Assembly: GCF_003010495.1 (NCBI RefSeq)
Contig: NZ_CP027570.1
Location: forward strand, 2,190,001-2,222,000
From: Megasphaera elsdenii DSM 20460
GTDB lineage: Bacteria; Bacillota; Negativicutes; Veillonellales; Megasphaeraceae
DNA length: 32,000 nucleotides
Reading direction: 5' to 3'
A program made the translations under genes and the position numbers. Under the pieces are notes generated by a model, which saw only the letters and a program-made list of their open reading frames with translations, made no database searches and was not told where the DNA came from. Shown here piece by piece: positions 2-22,642 of the stretch (its first letter is position 1; the number at the start of each line of letters is the position of its first letter).

Positions 2-646
2 CAGGGCTGGCTTTCATTTTGGTTTGATGAAGCCCGGCGGTTGGCAGTAGCAAAACACTTTCAACAACAGCGCTGTTCATTTTTGCAGCGCACTTGGGAG
101 AAAGACCGGGAACTTTCCGATTACGGTTTTTATTTTGATGATCCTGAAGTAGAAGATGCAATAACACTTTATAAAAAAGGAATCGAAAAGGCGGCGTCGA
201 TTTCGGAGTTATTGAGCAAAGAAGCTGCTTTTACGAAGAAACTGTACAAATATGCGGCTGCATTGACGGATTTTCCGGATTTTTCTCGAAATAGAGACAG
301 CGGTGATTGGGCCAATATCTTTTTAAATCACGGTAATTATCTGGCTTACGGCTTAGCGGCTTGTACGCTCTGGGTTTTGGGCATTCCTCATGGTTTTGCG
401 GTAATGCACGGCAAGACGCGGCGCGGTGCCCTGGTCTTTGATGTTGCCGATTTAATTAAGGATGCTATTGTATTGCCCTGGGCTTTTATCTGTGCTTACG
501 AAGGAATGGCCGGACAGGAATTTCGTCAGACTTGTCTGCAGAAATTTACGGAACATCATGCCATGGATTTTATGTTTGAAGAAGTAAAGCAATGCAGTCT
601 TATGTACTATAAAGCAGGTGATTCTCATGATGGTATTATTTACTAG
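2..646 (+). CDS. cas1: CRISPR-associated endonuclease Cas1, subtype I-F type (C-terminal part only; 5' end lies upstream of the window)
   Basis: Frame 2 is open from nt 2 (QGWLSFWFDEARR... precedes the ORF-track TTG at 41), so the gene is cut by the window edge. It carries the conserved block MHGKTRRGALVFDVADLIKDAIVLPWAF. It is directly overlapped by a Cas2-Cas3 fusion gene, the arrangement diagnostic of type I-F. Confidence 0.85.
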   Translation, partial: QGWLSFWFDEARRLAVAKHFQQQRCSFLQRTWEKDRELSDYGFYFDDPEVEDAITLYKKGIEKAASISELLSKEAAFTKKLYKYAAALTDFPDFSRNRDSGDWANIFLNHGNYLAYGLAACTLWVLGIPHGFAVMHGKTRRGALVFDVADLIKDAIVLPWAFICAYEGMAGQEFRQTCLQKFTEHHAMDFMFEEVKQCSLMYYKAGDSHDGIIY

Positions 647-3600
647 CCGAAGTGAAAAGAAAGCGATTCCTATCGTGCGGCGGATTTTGGATTGTTTTGC
701 CGACCGGATTGGAAACGATACGTGGCAAACGGTCATTACCCATGAAGGCCTGCAGGCAGTGAATAGACTGCTGCGTCGGACTGCGACGAAGAGTACCGCT
801 GTTTCCTGCCGTTGGATACGCTCCCGCAGCCGCAGCCAGCTTTTGTGGATTGTCGGCAATCGGCAGCGCTTTGACAGTGAAGGCCGGGTCCCTGTGAATT
901 GGACTGCTAAAAATATCTTGCACAACGAACGGGAAAATGAATGGTCGCGTATGCCCGAGCTGAAGGCGCTGACTGCACTGGCTTCGTTACTGCACGACTG
1001 GGGGAAATGCTCGGATTATTTTCAGGCTAAACTGCGGGAACATCGCCTTAGTGCCGATCCATTCCGGCACGAATGGATTTCGTGTAAGCTTCTGGAAGCC
1101 GTCGTGCACCTTAGCCAGGCGGAAAACGATGATGCAAAATGGCTGACGAATTTGGCTAGTGGGAATATCCGCGATACGGACCTGCAGCAGACTATGATGG
1201 AGACAGAGCAAAGGCGATTGGAACCGCTGCCGCCTGTAGCGGAATATTTGGCGTGGATTATTTTGTCCCACCATCGTTTGCCGCTGTTGGATAAGGAAAC
1301 GAGAAACGAATATCGGGAGGAAGCTGCATTATCGTTTGAAGAGATGTTCCGTCGCCTGCAGGCCCATTGGGGCTATGAAACGGAGACGGGCAAAGCGGAA
1401 AGAGAAGCTTGTTTTACATTCTCTCATGGTTTACTGTGTGATGATGGGAAGCGCTGGCAAAAGGAAGTTAAAAAATGGGCGGGACGATTGGCAGGTATGA
1501 AACTCGATGTTCCGGATAAAATACGGCCGCTCCTTTTGTACAGCCGTCTGTGCCTGATGCTGGCGGACCATTATATTTCATCGCAAGCGGCAGAGGATGC
1601 TAAAAATTGGGATGTCCCTGCCCTGTGGGCGAATACGGACGGCACTAAGAAGAGAAAACAGTATTTAGAGGAACATCTTGTCCGTGTTATGAAGCAGGCT
1701 TTGACGATTGCTCACTCTTTGCCGCAGCTGCAGCAGAAGATGGAAAGGGTCTGTGAAAATGCTTTTTTAAAAAAGCAGAGCAAAGAACGGCGCTTTCAGT
1801 GGCAGGATAAAGCCGTTGCGGCGATTCACCATTTTCGCAGTCAGCAAGAAGGCGATACGGCGTATTTTGTAGTGAACATAGCGAGCACGGGCTGTGGGAA
1901 AACAATGGCGAATGCGAAAATAATGCAGGCTCTTTCGAAAGATGAGAAATCACTGCGCTATATATTGGCCTTGGGATTGCGTACGCTTACGCTGCAGACG
2001 GGTGATGAATATAGAGAACGGATTGGCTTGGATAATAACGAATTAGCCGTATTGATTGGTTCTGTGGCAGTTAAAAAACTTCATGATATAGAAAAATACA
2101 GAGATGCAGGCTGTGATAATCTGATGCAGGATGAAGCAGAAAGTGCTGTAACCGGCGATGTAGAAACGCTGCTGGATGGGACTATTGTTTATGAAGATAC
2201 TTTTTCAGATGCTCAAAAGCAATTTCTTGAACTCTTTTTCAATCCCGCACGCAGCGAAGAGGGAGATAAAAATCGAGCTTTTTTGAATAAACCTGTCCTC
2301 GTTGCCACTATTGACTACTTGATGCGGGCGACAGAAACGATACGGGGCGGCAAATACATGCTGCCGCTTTTACGTCTTTTATCATCGGACCTGGTCATTG
2401 ACGAAATCGATGATTTTGGTGAAAAAGATTTGATAGCAGTTTCGCGGCTTGTTCATTTAGCTGGGATGCTGGGACGGAATGTCGTCCTGTCTTCTGCGAC
2501 GATTCCACTGGACTTAGCGATTGGCATGCATCGGGCATATATGCAGGGCCTGAAGTGTTATAATCAGTTCTTTGCAGAACATAAATACGGGGCTGCTGTT
2601 TTATGTGATGAATTCAAGACCTCTGTGGCAGCGATGCCTTTTTCGGAGGCCGATGAGGGATATATACGTTTCCATCGTGAATTCATCAAAAGACGCGCAG
2701 CTAAACTTATGAAACAACAAGTACGGCGGAAAGGATATATCACTCCCGTGGCAACTTCGGCAGAGGACTTGCATGAGAAACAACAGGCTTATTTTGAACA
2801 GATACGGATACAAGCAGAGAAACTGCACGATACACATCATTGTCTTGATAAACGGACGGGCAAGGAAGTTTCATTTGGACTTATCCGTATGGCGAATATT
2901 GATCCCTGTGTAGCACTGTCCCTATATTTATTGAAACATGCGGCGCCTGAAGGATATGCGTTTCGCGTGATGGTCTATCACAGCCGGCAGCTACTGCTGC
3001 TGCGCCATGAACAGGAAGCATATCTGGATAGCGTATTAAAGCGGAAAGGAGAGGACGGAGACATAATCGATGTCCAGAATCCTGTTTTACGGCAGCATAT
3101 CGACAAAGCTGCTGAAAATAAAATTTTATTTGTTTTGGTAGCCACTCCGGTGGAAGAAGTCGGACGCGACCATGATTTTGACTGGGCGGTCATTGAGCCG
3201 TCGTCGTATCGTTCTATCATCCAACTGTCAGGGCGGATTCTTCGTCATCGCTCATTGAAAAAGGATATTTCGTCACCGAATGTTGCCGTCATGCAGTATA
3301 ATCTGCGTGCTTTTTTACGAGATAAACAAATTGCTTTTTGCAGGCCAGGCTATGAGTCATCTAAACATTCTTTAGTCAGTCATGATATGATGAAGATTAT
3401 TGACGTGACTGCGTTACGTCAGCGCATCGATGCGGTGCCGCGGATAGAAAAGAGAAATCCCTTGCACCCGGAAATGAGTCTTGTGGATTTGGAGCAGCGT
3501 GTGATGGAAGATTTTAATTCAGATACAGCCCAAGGGCCTGAATGCTGCAACGGTTGGTTAAAAGAGTATTGGTGGCTGACGGCACTGCCCCAGGTATTTA

Positions 3601-3950
3601 ATCCGTTTCGGGAAAATACCCTGCAGGAAATCACTGCTTATCGGGTTTACCAAGATGGAAAAATGAGTTTTCGCTGGTATGATGGCCACGAATTTATACT
3701 GAAAGAAAATTGCTGGGATATTTCTATGTATCCGGATATGACGCTTGCGATGGAAGCGAATTTGTGGTTGCGGCGGGATTATATGGCAGCTTTGAAACGG
3801 TATACCTCTTTACAGGAGGATGAAAGTGAAGAGAAAGGAATTGAGAGAACGTCGAAGCAATTTGGTGAAATCGTATTTCCTGCTTCTGAAAATATTTCTT
3901 GGTATTATTCAGATCAGTTAGGACTTTTTAAAACGAAAGCAGTTCAATAA
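627..3950 (+). CDS. cas3f: Cas2-Cas3 fusion protein (Cas2/3, subtype I-F): Cas2 domain + HD nuclease + SF2 helicase
   Basis: The N-terminus MMVLFTSRSEKKAIPIVRRILDCFADRIGNDTWQT...LLWIVGN is Cas2-like. HD nuclease motifs are LLHDWGKCSDYF and ILSHHRLP. Helicase motifs are I ASTGCGKT, II VIDEIDDF, III SSATIP, V VATPVEEVGRDHDFDW and VI QLSGRILRH. The ORF opens at GTG 618; ATG 627 follows an AGGTG Shine-Dalgarno and fits the family N-terminus as I recall it. It appears intact. Confidence 0.92.
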   Translation: MMVLFTSRSEKKAIPIVRRILDCFADRIGNDTWQTVITHEGLQAVNRLLRRTATKSTAVSCRWIRSRSRSQLLWIVGNRQRFDSEGRVPVNWTAKNILHNERENEWSRMPELKALTALASLLHDWGKCSDYFQAKLREHRLSADPFRHEWISCKLLEAVVHLSQAENDDAKWLTNLASGNIRDTDLQQTMMETEQRRLEPLPPVAEYLAWIILSHHRLPLLDKETRNEYREEAALSFEEMFRRLQAHWGYETETGKAEREACFTFSHGLLCDDGKRWQKEVKKWAGRLAGMKLDVPDKIRPLLLYSRLCLMLADHYISSQAAEDAKNWDVPALWANTDGTKKRKQYLEEHLVRVMKQALTIAHSLPQLQQKMERVCENAFLKKQSKERRFQWQDKAVAAIHHFRSQQEGDTAYFVVNIASTGCGKTMANAKIMQALSKDEKSLRYILALGLRTLTLQTGDEYRERIGLDNNELAVLIGSVAVKKLHDIEKYRDAGCDNLMQDEAESAVTGDVETLLDGTIVYEDTFSDAQKQFLELFFNPARSEEGDKNRAFLNKPVLVATIDYLMRATETIRGGKYMLPLLRLLSSDLVIDEIDDFGEKDLIAVSRLVHLAGMLGRNVVLSSATIPLDLAIGMHRAYMQGLKCYNQFFAEHKYGAAVLCDEFKTSVAAMPFSEADEGYIRFHREFIKRRAAKLMKQQVRRKGYITPVATSAEDLHEKQQAYFEQIRIQAEKLHDTHHCLDKRTGKEVSFGLIRMANIDPCVALSLYLLKHAAPEGYAFRVMVYHSRQLLLLRHEQEAYLDSVLKRKGEDGDIIDVQNPVLRQHIDKAAENKILFVLVATPVEEVGRDHDFDWAVIEPSSYRSIIQLSGRILRHRSLKKDISSPNVAVMQYNLRAFLRDKQIAFCRPGYESSKHSLVSHDMMKIIDVTALRQRIDAVPRIEKRNPLHPEMSLVDLEQRVMEDFNSDTAQGPECCNGWLKEYWWLTALPQVFNPFRENTLQEITAYRVYQDGKMSFRWYDGHEFILKENCWDISMYPDMTLAMEANLWLRRDYMAALKRYTSLQEDESEEKGIERTSKQFGEIVFPASENISWYYSDQLGLFKTKAVQ

Positions 3951-3972
3951 ATCGTGTAAGTTGTGGTATAAT
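3943..3972 (+). promoter_or_regulatory. Putative sigma-70 promoter with extended -10, driving the mini-CRISPR
   Basis: TGgTATAAT lies at 3964-3972, with a weak -35 TTCAAT at 3943-3948 and an 18-nt spacer. It starts inside the cas2-3 stop region and lies only about 22 nt upstream of repeat 1. Confidence 0.5.
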
Positions 3973-3993
3973 AAACCAATGTTGAAGTTATCC

Positions 3994-4069
3994 GCTGTCT
4001 GCCGTACAGGCAGTTTAGAAATTTAAGAGATAAATCTCAGCATTATCTGCCGCACAGGCAGTTTAGAAA
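3994..4069 (+). CRISPR. Degenerate two-repeat mini-CRISPR (I-F-type repeats, 20-nt spacer)
   Basis: R1 at 3994-4021 is gctgtCTGCCgtacaGGCAGtttagaaa. R2 at 4042-4069 is attatCTGCCgcacaGGCAGtttagaaa. Both resemble the canonical I-F repeat GTTCACTGCCGTATAGGCAGCTAAGAAA, keeping the Cas6f stem CUGCC/GGCAG and an 8-nt handle. The spacer at 4022-4041 (tttaagagataaatctcagc) is 20 nt, not about 32 nt. Confidence 0.75.
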
Positions 4070-4072
4070 AGA

Positions 4073-4116
4073 GGCTGTGCATGATGTTTTTTTATCATGC
4101 ATAGCTCTTTTTCTTT
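4073..4116 (+). terminator. Intrinsic terminator immediately after mini-CRISPR repeat 2
   Basis: A 13-bp stem pairs ggctgtgcatgat (4073-4085) with atcatgcatagct (4094-4106), with two G-U pairs and loop gttttttt. It is followed by ctctttttctttt. Confidence 0.7.
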
Positions 4117-4123
4117 TATGTGG

Positions 4124-4153
4124 TTGCAAAAATGGGGCAGTTCACGGTATAAT
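4124..4153 (+). promoter_or_regulatory. Putative yicC-operon promoter
   Basis: -35 TTGCAA at 4124-4129, 18-nt spacer, -10 TATAAT at 4148-4153. The block around the -10 is a near copy of the mini-CRISPR promoter block (see findings). Confidence 0.55.
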
Positions 4154-4199
4154 AAAGCATTGAAGTAAAACAAATCAAATTCGTAAGGGGGTTCGAACT

Positions 4200-5087: not shown

Positions 5088-5383
5088 TGAACTTCAATTT
5101 ATTAAATATCGGCTTCGGCAATGTCGTCATGGGTGACAAAGTCGTGGCCATCATCAGTCCTGAATCGGCGCCCATCAAGCGCCTTGTCCAGGACGCCCGT
5201 GATGGGAATACCCTCATCGATGCGACCTTTGGCCGCAAGACCCGGTCGGTCCTGGTCATGGATAACGGCTGGATCATCTTATCGGCCTTGCAGCCGGAAA
5301 CGATTTCCCATCGCATCGTCCCTGCCGGCAGTGATGCCGTCCTGGAAGAGGATACGGAAGCAGGGGAAGAAGAAAAGGAGTAG
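5084..5383 (+). CDS. remA: RemA/YlzA (DUF370) family regulatory protein
   Basis: [62 protein letters not shown] is the DUF370/RemA signature. The ATGA overlap with the yicC stop matches B. subtilis yloC-ylzA. Confidence 0.9.
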
Positions 5384-5390
5384 TTGTGTC

Positions 5391-6005
5391 ATGAATGATT
5401 CCGGATTGCTCATCGTTGTGTCCGGCCCGTCCGGAGCCGGCAAGGGGACGATTTGTTCCGCTCTGCGGGAACAGTTCCCGAATATCCAATATTCTATTTC
5501 CATGACGACCCGAAAACCCCGTCCTGGGGAAGTGGACGGCGTCAATTATTATTTTGCCGATAACGCGCGGTTCGAGCAGCTCCTGGCAGAAGATGCCTTC
5601 CTGGAACATGCCAAGGTCTACGACCATTACTACGGCACGCCGAAGAAGTACGTTTATCAGATGCTGGAAGAAGGCAAACACGTCATGCTGGAAATCGACA
5701 TCCAAGGGGCCATGCAGGTCAAGAAACGGTATCCCCAAGGCGTCTTCATCTACATCGTACCGCCCAGCCGGGACGTCCTGGAAAAACGCCTCCGCGGCCG
5801 TCAGACCGATTCGGACGACGTCATCGCCGGCCGGCTGGCCAAGGCCCGGGCAGAACTGGACTGGATCGACCGCTATGATTACGTCATCGTCAACGACGAA
5901 CTAGAGAAAGCCGTCGATGAAGCGGCGTCCATCTTGAAAGCCGAACAGTGTAAAGTGACGCGCAATGCCCATCGCATCGCCCATACGAAAGAATTGTACA
6001 AATAA
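5391..6005 (+). CDS. gmk: Guanylate kinase
   Basis: It carries the P-loop LLIVVSGPSGAGKGTI, plus TTRKPRPGEVDGVNYYF and YDHYYGTPK. The real ATG is at 5391; the ORF-track start at 5121 is an upstream extension overlapping remA. Confidence 0.95.
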   Translation: MNDSGLLIVVSGPSGAGKGTICSALREQFPNIQYSISMTTRKPRPGEVDGVNYYFADNARFEQLLAEDAFLEHAKVYDHYYGTPKKYVYQMLEEGKHVMLEIDIQGAMQVKKRYPQGVFIYIVPPSRDVLEKRLRGRQTDSDDVIAGRLAKARAELDWIDRYDYVIVNDELEKAVDEAASILKAEQCKVTRNAHRIAHTKELYK

Positions 6006-7589: not shown

Positions 7590-7617
7590 CCACGAACCAC
7601 GAGCCACTAACCACTAA
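7590..7617 (-). repeat. Tandem heptamer array, inverted relative to 7514-7548
   Basis: The plus strand reads CCACGAA CCACGAG CCACTAA CCACTAA, whose reverse complement is TTAGTGG TTAGTGG CTCGTGG TTCGTGG. It overlaps the last codons and stop of the minus-strand CDS. Confidence 0.8.
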
Positions 7618-8878
7618 CCCGCCCTACGATGGCTTTGGCGAAGCCGTTGAGGTTGGTCGGGCCGATGGAGAGGATGGGGCAGCCTTTTTCTTTGGCTTCC
7701 GTAATGGCCCAGCGGACGAGGGGCGTCTTGCCATCTTCCATATTGACGACTAAGAGGGCCGATTCTTTCAGCAGCCGGTCATCCCCTGGCTGGCCGCTGA
7801 TGAGGAGAATAGCACCAAAACGGCGCTGGATGCGGCGCTGCCAGTCTGGGTCGCCGCCGGCCAGGGCAAGCTGGCGCCCCGTGAGGAAGCGGTCGAGCTG
7901 ACGCGTATAGTCGCGCTGGGTCATGAAGGAAGGCAGGTCCAGGCCGCGGTCTTCCGGCTCCCGGGCCGACCGAGACGCTTCCTGAGGCGTCACTTTCCGG
8001 TGCGCCTGTCCGCTGGAAAGGTCCGGCCGTACCTGACGCTTGTTGAGTTCCTTGCGCAGGGCCAGGAGTTCGGCGATTTGGCCGGATGCCGTTTCCTTGA
8101 TCTTTTCGATATACTGTTCCTGCTTGCGGATGCGGTCTTCATATTGCTTGCGCTCCTGTTCGCGGCCGGCCCGTTCGCTTTCTAATTCCTGGCGCAGCCG
8201 TTCCAGTTCGGCCAGGACCGTCGTACGGTTTTTTGCTTCCAGGCGCAGGCGCAGGAGCTCTTCCTTATCGGCGTCCATCTGGGCCTTTTCCTCCCGCAGC
8301 TGCTGAAGTTCTTCTTTTTCCTTGCCCATCATCATGGCCGGCGTTTCCTGGCCGCCTGTGACGGCTTCGTCAGACCAGGGCTGGTCGCAGATGGCCATGA
8401 GATAAATGCCCAGGGCGTGGGCCACAGCGTGCTTGGCCATCTGTACATCTTCAAAGACGTTGGTCAGCTCAAGAATCTGGCTGTCCGTCTGGAGCATGAG
8501 CAGGTCGATGATGCCCATATAGGAAAAGGATTCCATGGTCTGCGCCATGTCGTAGCGTTCGAGGTGAATCGTGCCGGCGTAGATTTCTTCCGGGTTTTGT
8601 TGGGACGTATAATACGTATTGATGAGCAGCCGGTCTGCCGTCCGTTCGTAGATCCGCAGGACCAGGGCGTCTTCCTTGTTCGTGCCGGTGTAGCGGCTGA
8701 AGGTCAGCCGTTCCTGGGACAGGAGGGTCGTCACCAGGTTTGGGGTCTTATACCACTTGCCGAATACTTCGACTCGTTTGGCCAGCCGCAGGTCGCCGGG
8801 TTTGCTGCAGGTGGCATAATCAAAATAAGGGTCGTTGAAGAATATATCTCTAGGCCGCAATTTGGTCATATCTATCAT
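7607..8878 (-). CDS. Hypothetical protein: unknown N-terminal domain + about 90-aa charged coiled coil + C-terminal DUF2325-like domain (tentative)
   Basis: The 423-codon ORF has host-like codon usage. Residues about 190-280 are heptad-like and E/K/R/Q/L-rich (EELQQLREEKAQMDADKEELLRLRLEAKN...). The C-terminus reads LALAGGDPDWQRRIQRRFGAILLISGQPGDD...LVVNMEDGKTPLVRWAITEAKEKGCPIL. The start may instead be the second ATG (8869), 9 nt after GAAAGG. I recognised no family for the N-domain. Confidence 0.6.
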   Translation of the reverse strand: MIDMTKLRPRDIFFNDPYFDYATCSKPGDLRLAKRVEVFGKWYKTPNLVTTLLSQERLTFSRYTGTNKEDALVLRIYERTADRLLINTYYTSQQNPEEIYAGTIHLERYDMAQTMESFSYMGIIDLLMLQTDSQILELTNVFEDVQMAKHAVAHALGIYLMAICDQPWSDEAVTGGQETPAMMMGKEKEELQQLREEKAQMDADKEELLRLRLEAKNRTTVLAELERLRQELESERAGREQERKQYEDRIRKQEQYIEKIKETASGQIAELLALRKELNKRQVRPDLSSGQAHRKVTPQEASRSAREPEDRGLDLPSFMTQRDYTRQLDRFLTGRQLALAGGDPDWQRRIQRRFGAILLISGQPGDDRLLKESALLVVNMEDGKTPLVRWAITEAKEKGCPILSIGPTNLNGFAKAIVGRVSG

Positions 8879-9007: not shown

Positions 9008-9110
9008 AGAACCATCAAGAGACGACGGAGGGACTGGCCCTGTGATGTCGCAGCAACCTTCAGCTATGAAAGGTGCTAATTCCAGCAGTGATATACTGGC
9101 AGATGGGGAT
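9008..9110 (+). promoter_or_regulatory. SAM-I (S-box) riboswitch
   Basis: ccAUCAAGAGacgacGGAGGGACUGGCCCugugaugucgCAGCAACCuucagcuaugaaaGGUGCUAAUUCCAGCAgugauauacuggcAGAUGG matches the conserved S-box cores. P1 pairs CCAUC with GAUGG. Confidence 0.9.
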
Positions 9111-9115
9111 TAGAA

Positions 9116-9154
9116 GCCCCTCTCATGAAGTCATGGATGAGGGGAATTTTTTTT
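9116..9154 (+). terminator. Riboswitch expression-platform terminator
   Basis: gCCCCtcTCATgaagtcatggATGAGGGGaattttttttt sits directly before the metK RBS AAGGAGG. Confidence 0.8.
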
Positions 9155-9168
9155 AAGGAGGATCACTC

Positions 9169-10359
9169 ATGGCTAAAAATCGTGAATTCTTTACATCCGA
9201 ATCCGTCACCGAAGGCCATCCCGATAAAATGGCCGACCAGATTTCGGACAGCATTTTGGATGCCATTCTTGCAAAAGATAAAAACGCCCGCGTTGCCTGC
9301 GAAACCTTGGTAACGACCGGCATGGTACACGTCGTCGGCGAAATCTCTACGACGTGCTACGTCGATATTCCGCACATCGTCCGCGAAACGATCCGCGATA
9401 TCGGTTATACCCGCGCTAAATACGGCTTTGACTGCGATACCTGCGGCGTCCTCGTCTCCTTGGACGAACAGTCTCCGGATATCGCCATGGGCGTCGATGA
9501 CGCCTTGGAAAAGAAGGAAGGCAATACAGATAAGTTCGATACCATCGGCGCTGGCGACCAGGGCATGATGTTCGGCTATGCTTCCAACGAAACGGACGAC
9601 TACATGCCGCTGCCTATTTCTTTGGCACACCGTTTGGCCCGCCGCCTGGCAAAGGTCCGCAAAGACGGTACCTTGCCGTATCTCCGTCCCGATGGCAAGA
9701 CTCAGGTCACTGTCGAATATGAAGACGGCAAACCCGTCCGCATCGACACCATCGTCATTTCGGCACAGCACAGCCCGGAAGTCAGCCGCGAACAGATTGA
9801 AAGCGATCTCCTCGAATTCGTCATCAAACCGGAACTTCCGGAAGGCTTGTTCGACGACAAGACGAAACTCTTCATCAACCCGACAGGCCGCTTCGTCATC
9901 GGCGGTCCCCAGGGCGACTCGGGCCTCACGGGCCGCAAGATCATCGTCGATACCTATGGCGGCATGGCTCGTCATGGCGGCGGTGCTTTCTCTGGCAAGG
10001 ACCCCACAAAAGTCGACCGTTCGGCTGCCTATGCAGCTCGTTACGTCGCCAAGAACGTCGTCGCTGCCGGCTTGGCTGACAAATGCGAAATCCAGCTGGC
10101 TTATGCCATCGGCGTAGCCCGCCCGGTTTCCATCCACGTCGAAACCTTCGGCACGGGCAAAGTCCCGAACGAAAAGATCGTCGAACTCATTGAAAAGAAC
10201 TTCGACCTTCGTCCGGCTGGCATCATCGCCATGCTCGACTTGCAGCGCCCGATTTACAAACAGACCGCTGCCTATGGCCACTTCGGCCGCAACGACCTCG
10301 ACCTGCCTTGGGAAAAGACAGACAAAGCCGATACGCTCCGCAAAGAAGCCGGCTTATAA
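9169..10359 (+). CDS. metK: S-adenosylmethionine synthetase
   Basis: [53 protein letters not shown] and [19 protein letters not shown] are canonical MetK motifs. Confidence 0.97.
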
Positions 10360-21255: not shown

Positions 21256-21282
21256 CATACATGTAGTTCAAGTGAATAAGGA

Positions 21283-21410
21283 TAGTCTTTGAGGCAAGGT
21301 GAGAAAGCGGCGCTTTCAATTCCTGACCGGCGGTGACAGTCCGCTAACCCGCAAGGGTTGAACCGATGCAATTTCGGTACCGACAGTACAGTCTGGATGG
21401 GAAAAGACGA
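21283..21410 (+). promoter_or_regulatory. FMN riboswitch (RFN element)
   Basis: GUCUUUGAGGCAAGGUGA...AAUUCCUGACCGGCGGUgacAGUCCGC...CCGACAGUacAGUCUGGAUGGGAAAAGAC matches the conserved RFN cores. P1 pairs GUCUUU with AAAGAC. Confidence 0.9.
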
Positions 21411-21433
21411 CAGATTGTGTTTTTGTTGCGCTC

Positions 21434-21505: not shown

Positions 21506-22642
21506 TTGGAACCGGCAGAGTATATGAAAAAAGCCCTGGACTTGGCAAAGACCGCCCTGGGCTATACGACATCTAACCCGGCTGTCGGCTGTGTCATCGT
21601 CAAAGACGGTGAAATCGTCGGCACGGGCTATCACCATAAGGCCGGCACGCCCCATGCGGAAGTATGGGCTTTGCGTGAAGCCGGCGAACGGGCTAAAGGA
21701 GCGACGGTCTATGTGACTCTCGAACCGTGCGCCCATTACGGACGGACGCCGCCCTGCGCCCGGACCCTCGTTGAAAAGGGCGTCGGCAAAGTCGTCATGG
21801 CCATGCTCGACCCGAACCCCTTAGTCGCCGGCAAGGGGGCCGCGATCCTGCGGCAGGCGGGCATCCCCGTCGAAGTCGGCCTCCTGTCGAAGGAAGCAGC
21901 CCAGCTCAACGAAGTCTTCATCAAGAACATGATGGTCCAGAAACCGTTCATCGCCATCAAATTGGCCCAAAGCCTCGATGGCCGCACGGCTTCGCGGACG
22001 GGGAAATCCCAGTGGATCACCAATGACTGGGCCCGCAGTTACGGGCACTACCTGCGCTCTATCTACGACGGCATCCTGGTCGGTATCAATACGGTCCTGA
22101 CCGATAATCCGCTCCTGACCAGCCGCATCGAACGGCCTGGCCAGGACGCACCGCATCAGCCTGTACGCGTCGTACTGGATACCAAAGGACGGACACCTTT
22201 GAATTCACTCGTCGTCACCGATAAGACGACGCAGACCCTTATCGTCACGACGTCTTTGTGCCCCGTAGAGAAGATGAAGGCTTTGAAAAACGCCGGCGTC
22301 CGCGTCATCCTGGCTCCGCTCCAGGACGGCAAGACCATCTACTTGCCTGACGCCTTGCAACTCCTGCATGATGAAGGACTGACCAGCATCCTCGTCGAAG
22401 GCGGCAGCACCGTCCAGGGGAGCTTCTTCGATGCCCGCCTGGTCGATAAGATTTATGCCTTCGTCGGCGACAAGGTTATCGGTGGTACTGGCGCATTGCC
22501 GTCGGTTGGCGGCTGCGGCGTCGATGAGCTCGATGAATGTATGCCGCTGCTCTATGATTCGGTAGAGCTCCATGAAAATAACATATTGATTACGGCATAT
22601 AATGCCAACAGGGAGGGTGCCTATGTTCACTGGCATCATTGA
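21506..22642 (+). CDS. ribD: Bifunctional diaminohydroxyphosphoribosylaminopyrimidine deaminase / 5-amino-6-(5-phosphoribosylamino)uracil reductase
   Basis: It has the deaminase zinc motifs HAEVWAL and PCAHYGRTPPC, plus the reductase domain (KLAQSLDGR...ILVEGGSTV). TTG start follows GGAAGGA. Confidence 0.95.
   Translation: MEPAEYMKKALDLAKTALGYTTSNPAVGCVIVKDGEIVGTGYHHKAGTPHAEVWALREAGERAKGATVYVTLEPCAHYGRTPPCARTLVEKGVGKVVMAMLDPNPLVAGKGAAILRQAGIPVEVGLLSKEAAQLNEVFIKNMMVQKPFIAIKLAQSLDGRTASRTGKSQWITNDWARSYGHYLRSIYDGILVGINTVLTDNPLLTSRIERPGQDAPHQPVRVVLDTKGRTPLNSLVVTDKTTQTLIVTTSLCPVEKMKALKNAGVRVILAPLQDGKTIYLPDALQLLHDEGLTSILVEGGSTVQGSFFDARLVDKIYAFVGDKVIGGTGALPSVGGCGVDELDECMPLLYDSVELHENNILITAYNANREGAYVHWHH

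Follow-up and report, generated by a model that had tools for sequence, protein, structure and literature searches.

The stretch analysed here comprises 32,000 nucleotides (nt) of the Megasphaera elsdenii DSM 20460 chromosome (NZ_CP027570.1, positions 2,190,001 to 2,222,000; hereafter the window). M. elsdenii is a rumen and gut organism and serves as a probiotic and production strain. The window begins within a CRISPR-Cas locus of type I-F (CRISPR, short palindromic repeats that are clustered and regularly interspaced), and our subject is a small unit at the end of that locus, a mini-array of two repeats around one short spacer, which is a candidate regulator of the locus's own effector genes. 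All features of the locus described below lie on the + strand. The first base of the window falls inside cas1, whose 3' part occupies positions 1-646 (Pfam Cas_Cas1); the full 327-amino-acid gene is found at 9037-10020 of a longer record, HE576794.1 (L001), which, like CP198969.1 (L002), is identical to the window across 13,950 nt. The next gene, cas2-3 (627-3950), encodes a type I-F Cas2-Cas3 fusion of 1107 amino acids with Pfam matches to Cas3_I-F_Cas2, Cas3_HD and Cas3-like_C_2, and exactly this product is recorded in M. elsdenii genomes. The recorded start is the ATG at 627; a GTG at 618 was considered as the start and rejected, as no exact protein record begins there.

The mini-array follows cas2-3 after a gap of 43 nt that contains no gene. 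It consists of repeat 1 (psiR1, here R1; GCTGTCTGCCGTACAGGCAGTTTAGAAA, 3994-4021), a 20-nt spacer-like guide (psiS; TTTAAGAGATAAATCTCAGC, 4022-4041) and repeat 2 (psiR2, here R2; ATTATCTGCCGCACAGGCAGTTTAGAAA, 4042-4069). The repeats start 48 nt apart, and the spacer is shorter than the 32-nt spacers of the two resident arrays, CRISPR1 and CRISPR2. R1 contains the Cas6f hairpin CTGCC-GTACA-GGCAG followed by the 8-nt handle TTTAGAAA, and both the CTGCC/GGCAG stem and the handle are the same as in the resident arrays. R1 and R2 are identical at 24 of 28 positions, with three differences within the 5' five nt and one in the loop. R2 scores 36 bits against the Rfam family CRISPR-DR4 (gathering score 35) and matches the CRISPR2 repeat at 27 of 28 positions. 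A 23-nt core of the repeat occurs at two sites in the 32-kb window, both within the mini-array, and none of 100 shuffled sequences matched. The RNA is predicted to fold into two Cas6f hairpins and a terminator hairpin (z = -6.2). A preliminary description of the window had proposed two 28-nt I-F repeats with this spacing and spacer length, differing from each other only at their 5' ends and at one loop base and keeping hairpin and handle intact; their coordinates and core are confirmed.

Signals for an independent transcript flank the repeats. An extended -10 element, TGGTATAAT (3964-3972), is read from the sequence as the putative mini-array promoter and ends 21 nt before R1, while an intrinsic terminator (4073-4116), found by terminator scan and by folding, starts 4 nt 3' of R2 with a 14-pair hairpin (4073-4106) and continues into a T tract. 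Both signals had been noted in the preliminary description, and both are present. No gene lies between the mini-array and this terminator, which closes the whole co-directional cas locus and is the sole strong + strand terminator in L001 2300-13600. Because there is no terminator between cas2-3 and the mini-array, read-through from cas2-3 is a possible further source of the transcript. Immediately downstream, the yicC promoter (4124-4153; promoter scan 10/12) marks the right border of the CRISPR-Cas island and stands outside the element; it is native, being common to strains without the island. The mini-array promoter region GTGGTATAATAAACCAATGTTGAAGT (3955-3993) is similar to the native yicC promoter region ACGGTATAATAAAGCATTGAAGT (4135-4175). 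An origin of the mini-array promoter by duplication of the yicC promoter was considered and set aside, since the island-less strains reveal merely that the yicC promoter is native.

The complete locus is visible in L001, where CRISPR1, the csy1 promoter, csy1-csy2-csy3-cas6f, CRISPR2, cas1, cas2-3, the mini-array and the terminator follow one another on one strand. The full I-F gene set (csy1-4, cas1 and cas2-3) is intact. CRISPR1 has 13 full repeats and one degenerate terminal repeat, and CRISPR2 has 28 repeats. The island has a G+C content of 42-48%, compared with 52-56% in its flanks. In strains without it, an NFACT gene lies directly 5' of yicC, and only the yicC promoter is held in common with the window. 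The mini-array is chromosomal, placed between cas2-3 and yicC, with no mobile-element genes nearby. The strain also carries I-C and III-A systems as well as prophages (PMC7708048).

The mini-array is stable among M. elsdenii strains. We compared repeats and spacing in L001-L009, L090, L093, L096, L099 and L100 and read the sequences directly in L090 and L091. All M. elsdenii copies examined agree exactly in guide, hairpins and handles. Differences between strains are confined to the 5' five nt of R1 (GCTGT or GACGT), which would be lost on processing, and to a change from G-U to A-U in the terminator stem (L090 9020-9140, L091 1650-1770). A pattern scan of metagenomes returned two further copies only, both from M. 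elsdenii and both with the same guide.

This constancy bears on the possibility that the unit is a functionless, decayed remnant of a CRISPR array, consisting of terminal repeats brought together by an internal deletion, in which case any match of its spacer to a promoter would be chance or leftover homology. The near identity of R2 to the CRISPR2 repeat could be taken that way, and orphan repeats of degenerate sequence are often found close to cas loci, a point made for type III loci (PMC10120712). Against this, CRISPR2 is 4,383 nt away, with cas1 and cas2-3 intervening, and the mini-array keeps its two repeats throughout the strains, whereas the arrays turn over: CRISPR2 has 4, 16 or 28 repeats, and 11 or 13 full CRISPR1 repeats were detected across strains. 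A leader motif common to CRISPR1 and CRISPR2 was not found at the mini-array. With its content fixed, the arrays variable and the leader motif missing, the unit is therefore not an eroded array end, the origin that the preliminary description had raised against its own proposal. The same absence of a leader, together with the 20-nt spacer and the invariant content, bears out its view that the unit is not an acquisition-competent array. The target analysis and the comparison with related loci, given below, add further evidence, and we regard the remnant explanation as very improbable.

A second way of reading the unit is as an ordinary interference CRISPR RNA (crRNA) gene with an unusually short spacer directed against a mobile element. 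Its intact handle and hairpins would suit such a role. However, the spacer is fixed in all strains, and 20 nt is well under the 32 nt of both arrays. A scan of a viral contig collection for the handle joined to the PAM-proximal 14 nt (PAM, protospacer-adjacent motif) found no phage-borne copies of the guide; as evidence against an interference role this is weak, since the pattern detects a copy of the guide gene and not a protospacer. We find this explanation hardly credible.

The guide has a partial match beside the promoter of the effector operon. L001 3487-3508 reads CC-TTTAAAAGATAAATAATATT: after the CC PAM comes a sequence in which guide positions 1-5 and 7-14 are matched (3489-3502). Position 6 is the sole mismatch within positions 1-14, whereas five of the six PAM-distal positions (15-20) are mismatched. 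In type I complexes position 6 is flipped out and unpaired. The csy1 promoter, the top promoter match across 11 kb of the locus, has a -35 element, TTGAAT, at 3507-3512 and a TG-extended TATAAT at 3527-3535, and lies 43 nt before the csy1 start at 3578, a GTG, with AAGGAGG in between. The footprint of the 20-nt guide reaches into the -35 element. The preliminary description had found no convincing target in the window, and neither did we, the best in-window matches being runs of at most 8 nt or sites without a PAM. The CC-flanked partial match that it suggested looking for at the csy promoter is the site at L001 3487-3502, which is 9,879 nt (about 9.9 kb) upstream of the mini-array and was invisible to that reading because it lies 5.9 kb 5' of the first base of the window. 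The csy1 promoters of L001 and of L019, an I-F locus from a second M. elsdenii strain, have TGTGGTATAAT in common.

Such a match is seldom produced by chance. In L001 and the window, this single site is the only CC-flanked seed run of at least 9 nt. Of 20,000 trials with shuffled guides, 2 produced a run of at least 14 somewhere in the 23-kb locus, a frequency that also counts against the match being a coincidence within a decayed remnant, and our own estimate from base composition is about 0.003 such CC-flanked matches per 2.47-Mb genome. Natural protospacers that might define the PAM were sought by comparing both arrays with a phage collection, with no match; the assignment of CC rests instead on a PAM-free search across relatives, described below.

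The target search in this genome covered about 41 kb of the 2.47 Mb, and the guide might have its main target elsewhere, whether in a gene of the host, in a prophage or in one of the co-resident systems (I-C or III-A), with the csy1 promoter secondary or incidental. The presence of those systems and of prophages in the strain (PMC7708048) supplies candidates, and short seed matches are enough for binding (PMC10120712). This must be set against the very small number of matches expected by chance genome-wide, the absence of a second run of at least 9 in the sequence searched, and the position of the site beside the effector promoter, exactly as in 20 related loci. On this evidence a principal target elsewhere appears unlikely.

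The surroundings of the target also bear on a toxin-antitoxin interpretation, in which the guide would be the CreA antitoxin of a CreTA module, repressing a small toxin gene such that the cell dies or is arrested on loss of Csy function. In P. aeruginosa and Acinetobacter, I-F systems carry CreTA modules whose mini-arrays are similar (10.1101/2024.10.29.618823). At the M. elsdenii site, however, the distance from the predicted transcription start to csy1 is about 36 nt, so the targeted promoter drives csy1 itself with a short leader, and no mini-ORF (ORF, open reading frame) or RNA gene that could encode a CreT-like toxin fits between them. Nor is there any ORF near the mini-array, the intervals that separate it from cas2-3 and from its terminator being empty. 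An antitoxin role is, in our assessment, less probable still than decay from an array. The preliminary description had proposed a CreR- or CreA-like guide for the Csy complex: the CreR half of that proposal is upheld by the CC-flanked match at the csy1-csy4 promoter, and the CreA half is not, there being no room for a toxin gene.

We extended the comparison to 80 related I-F loci (L010-L089), all of which have the canonical order cas1, cas2-3, csy1-4. Isolated two-repeat mini-arrays with 14-26-nt spacers are present in 22 of them, about a quarter (for example, L028 13282-13356, L059 7380-7455 and L032 3370-3445), which makes 23 with that of M. elsdenii. They nearly always sit just 3' of cas2-3, in either orientation relative to it. 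Twelve of the 23 have their repeats spaced at 48 nt, the others at 42-54 nt, and guide lengths are mostly 18-21 nt among the chromosomal mini-arrays of this Cas2-3 clade. The guides differ from locus to locus, and 18 of the 23 have a CC-flanked site of their own that matches at least 12 of the first 14 nt; shuffled guides gave such sites in 0.28 loci on average and in 1 at most. When the search was repeated with no PAM imposed, CC still preceded the best match in about 20 loci, at a distance of 9-98 nt from the mini-array. The recurrence of both the architecture and the lineage-specific matching targets would not be expected of functionless remnants.

The mismatches within guide-target pairs follow a pattern. 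They fall at position 6 (7 of 19 pairs), position 12 (12 of 19), position 18 (10 of 18) and beyond position 15. Positions 1-5, 7-11 and 13-14 are hardly ever mismatched in the 19 pairs, a contrast that is partly a product of how the pairs were selected. The drift at every sixth position is not due to that selection and is the signature of Cascade-type pairing. Mismatches at 6, 12 and 18 point to selection on pairing rather than to mere descent, a further argument against a remnant.

Two of the related loci deserve separate mention. L019, from the second M. elsdenii strain, is a different, canonical I-F locus with its own mini-array, whose cognate target lies over the -35 element of a homologous promoter. 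In L016, a Dialister metagenome-assembled genome, the mini-array is 5' of cas1 instead of 3' of cas2-3 (5291-5413) and has its CC-flanked target 32 nt downstream, and hardly any gap separates cas2-3 from csy1; here the regulated promoter seems to drive the entire cas1-to-cas6f operon.

Toxin-free elements of this type were named CreR by Liu et al. 2023 (10.1101/2023.03.10.532045). All of the testable sequence-level features that define CreR and I-F mini-arrays are present in M. elsdenii, and we consider it likely, from these sequence comparisons, that the unit is a CreR-type Cas-regulating mini-CRISPR, a crRNA-like RNA gene that represses the type I-F effector genes of its own locus.

Several points weigh against this interpretation. 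The support for autorepression in M. elsdenii is computational throughout. The mini-array promoter is an extended -10 only, with a poor -35, and does not appear in the list returned by the consensus promoter scan. The paired stretch of the guide (positions 1-14) stops 5 nt short of the -35 element of the csy1 promoter, and only the unpaired PAM-distal part overlaps it. Given the portion of the genome searched, additional or alternative targets are possible. Finally, the M. elsdenii copies are nearly identical, and covariation of guide and target is seen across the wider family, not within the lineage. Close relatives in which it could be followed were not found, Cas2-3 identity being at most 53% in the genome collection and the protein database showing a gap between a cluster at 100% and sequences at 55% or less. 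Of the conservation and covariation that the preliminary description had suggested checking in related strains, the conservation of the unit is evident, and the covariation takes the form of lineage-specific pairs in the wider family.

The observed match, its PAM, its position at the promoter and the family-wide pattern suggest a mechanism for CreR-type autorepression in which transcription, processing, binding, repression and the absence of cleavage are modelled on other systems. Cas6f cuts at the 3' base of the repeat hairpin. The mini-array would be transcribed from its own extended -10, possibly supplemented by read-through from cas2-3, with transcription ending at the terminator 4 nt past R2. 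Cleavage at the base of each hairpin would release a 48-nt crRNA-like RNA (predicted at 4014-4061) consisting of the 8-nt 5' handle UUUAGAAA, the 20-nt guide and a 20-nt 3' hairpin. Around so short an RNA a Csy complex of reduced length would form, probably with four rather than six Cas7f/Csy3 subunits, by analogy with published 49-nt I-F guides; subunit numbers of four, five and six have been reported for guides of 49, 54 and 60 nt, respectively (10.1101/2024.10.29.618823). The complex would read the CC PAM and pair through guide positions 1-5 and 7-14 at the matching site 9.9 kb upstream. Once bound it may obstruct RNA polymerase at the csy1 promoter, as well as read-through from CRISPR1, and thereby lower effector levels, as in P. 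aeruginosa YL84. Because only 14 PAM-proximal positions pair, the R-loop would remain incomplete, Cas2-3 would not be licensed and the chromosome would stay uncut. The result would be negative feedback: a shortage of Csy complexes, their dilution among many crRNAs or their blockage by an inhibitor would free the promoter.

The layout of the M. elsdenii locus departs from that of its relatives. A guide gene adjoining its target is typical of the family, though not defining, and the permuted M. elsdenii locus is the sole case among the 23 in which the two are kilobases apart (9,879 nt, as against 9-98 nt). A gap of 6 nt separates the end of CRISPR1's degenerate terminal repeat from the CC PAM that precedes the target (L001 3453-3488), and this geometry is the same as that of R2 and the PAM in co-directional mini-arrays, where the interval is 6 nt in Selenomonas ruminantium and 7 nt in Sulfurimonas (compare L028 13329-13364 and L059 7428-7464). 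M. elsdenii R2 is also the only one of the 23 with a fully intact 3' handle. Together, the intact handle and the geometry of the CRISPR1 terminal repeat would fit a circular permutation broken in R2. We tentatively suggest, as a possibility that we hold to be well less probable than not, that a canonical I-F locus was circularly permuted with its breakpoint in R2 of an ancestral promoter-adjacent mini-array, so that a regulator once adjacent in cis would now act in trans, from the far 3' end of a co-directional unit of about 10 kb. The last-transcribed element would then repress the first promoter, the supply of guide could hang on read-through of the whole locus, and the 20-nt guide, with its four Csy3 subunits, might make the repressor insensitive to AcrIF24-like inhibitors, contrary to the trend in published host I-F regulators, whose guides have 23-27 nt.

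The rest of the window contains features apart from the CRISPR-Cas island. Between coaBC and metK, on the - strand, is an ORF of 423 amino acids (7607-8878) with no Pfam match, and a gene is called there in every retrieved M. elsdenii contig. Two riboswitches score above their Rfam gathering thresholds, an S-adenosylmethionine (SAM) riboswitch at 9009-9109, upstream of metK (9169-10359), and a flavin mononucleotide (FMN) riboswitch at 21281-21412, upstream of an ORF at 21506-22642 that is presumably a riboflavin gene. The segment 26679-30899 holds a Wzy_C O-antigen ligase-like gene and three glycosyltransferase genes (GT2, GT4 and GT8), and its AT-rich intergenic stretches have a TGAAAAAAATTTTTTTAGCTTGTATA-like repeat in common.

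The class to which we assign the mini-array is already established; the M. elsdenii unit is a new member of it, and its novelty is a guide gene far from its target in a permuted locus. Megasphaera is unmentioned in the main texts of PMC10120712 and 10.1101/2023.03.10.532045, and the mini-array is likewise absent from PMC7708048, a paper that deals with this strain's I-F system. The unit provides a clear case of a CRISPR-derived self-regulator from the Negativicutes. It also indicates that a guide gene need not adjoin the promoter it controls, so that searches limited to neighbouring intergenic regions would miss such cases. The sequence signature described here, namely repeats spaced at 48 nt, a CC PAM and freedom at positions 6, 12 and 18, offers a means of finding further members. 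For M. elsdenii itself, the proposed mechanism predicts that I-F effector levels are kept low by a 48-nt RNA, which bears on genome editing with the native system and on phage resistance.

The closest known counterparts are the I-F1 mini-arrays found near cas3 in about 15% of loci, for which CC PAMs, spacers of reduced length and mismatches at sixth positions are reported (Shmakov et al. 2023, PMC10120712). One of these, from P. aeruginosa YL84, has a short spacer with mismatches at positions 6 and 12 and represses the Cascade promoter without DNA restriction, Cascade and the guide being sufficient (PMC10120712). The M. elsdenii unit resembles them in having two repeat-like sequences around a shortened spacer by the 3' end of cas2-3, and shares with I-F1 mini-arrays the CC PAM, PAM-proximal pairing with mismatches tolerated at every sixth position, a target at the Cascade (csy) promoter and the lack of a leader. 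The I-F1 mini-arrays of PMC10120712, however, lie between cas2-3 and csy1, no more than about 100 nt from their targets, and are described as opposite in orientation to cas3, whereas in M. elsdenii the order is csy1-4, CRISPR2, cas1, cas2-3, mini-array, and the guide runs co-directionally with cas2-3 at the outer edge of the island. Guide lengths also differ: reported host I-F regulators have 23-27 nt and viral I-F Cracr RNAs 17-21 nt (10.1101/2024.10.29.618823), and the 20-nt M. elsdenii guide is below the former range and inside the latter.

With CreR (10.1101/2023.03.10.532045), the unit has in common a degenerate mini-CRISPR, the lack of a toxin partner, a guide that partly matches the effector promoter and autorepression, here predicted. 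The experimental cases of CreR belong to types I-B, I-E and V-A, and I-F elements are merely listed there from manual searches. The I-B and I-F CreTA modules likewise rely on a crRNA-like guide of partial complementarity through which Cascade represses transcription, an effect again predicted in our case, and differ in that M. elsdenii has no toxin gene at or near the target and the targeted promoter drives csy1 directly. The viral Cracr and Racr elements, which are phage-encoded crRNA-like anti-CRISPR RNAs (10.1101/2024.10.29.618823, PMC10651486), are similar in their short guides, and I-F Cracr complexes carry four Csy3 subunits; they are found in phages, prophages or plasmids, unlike the M. 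elsdenii unit, which is chromosomal and within the cas island. A more distant parallel is offered by tracr-L and scaRNA of type II systems, in which a repeat-derived RNA redirects the effector so that, by way of a short match, a promoter is repressed (PMC10120712); there the effector is Cas9, and the RNA architecture and processing differ as well.

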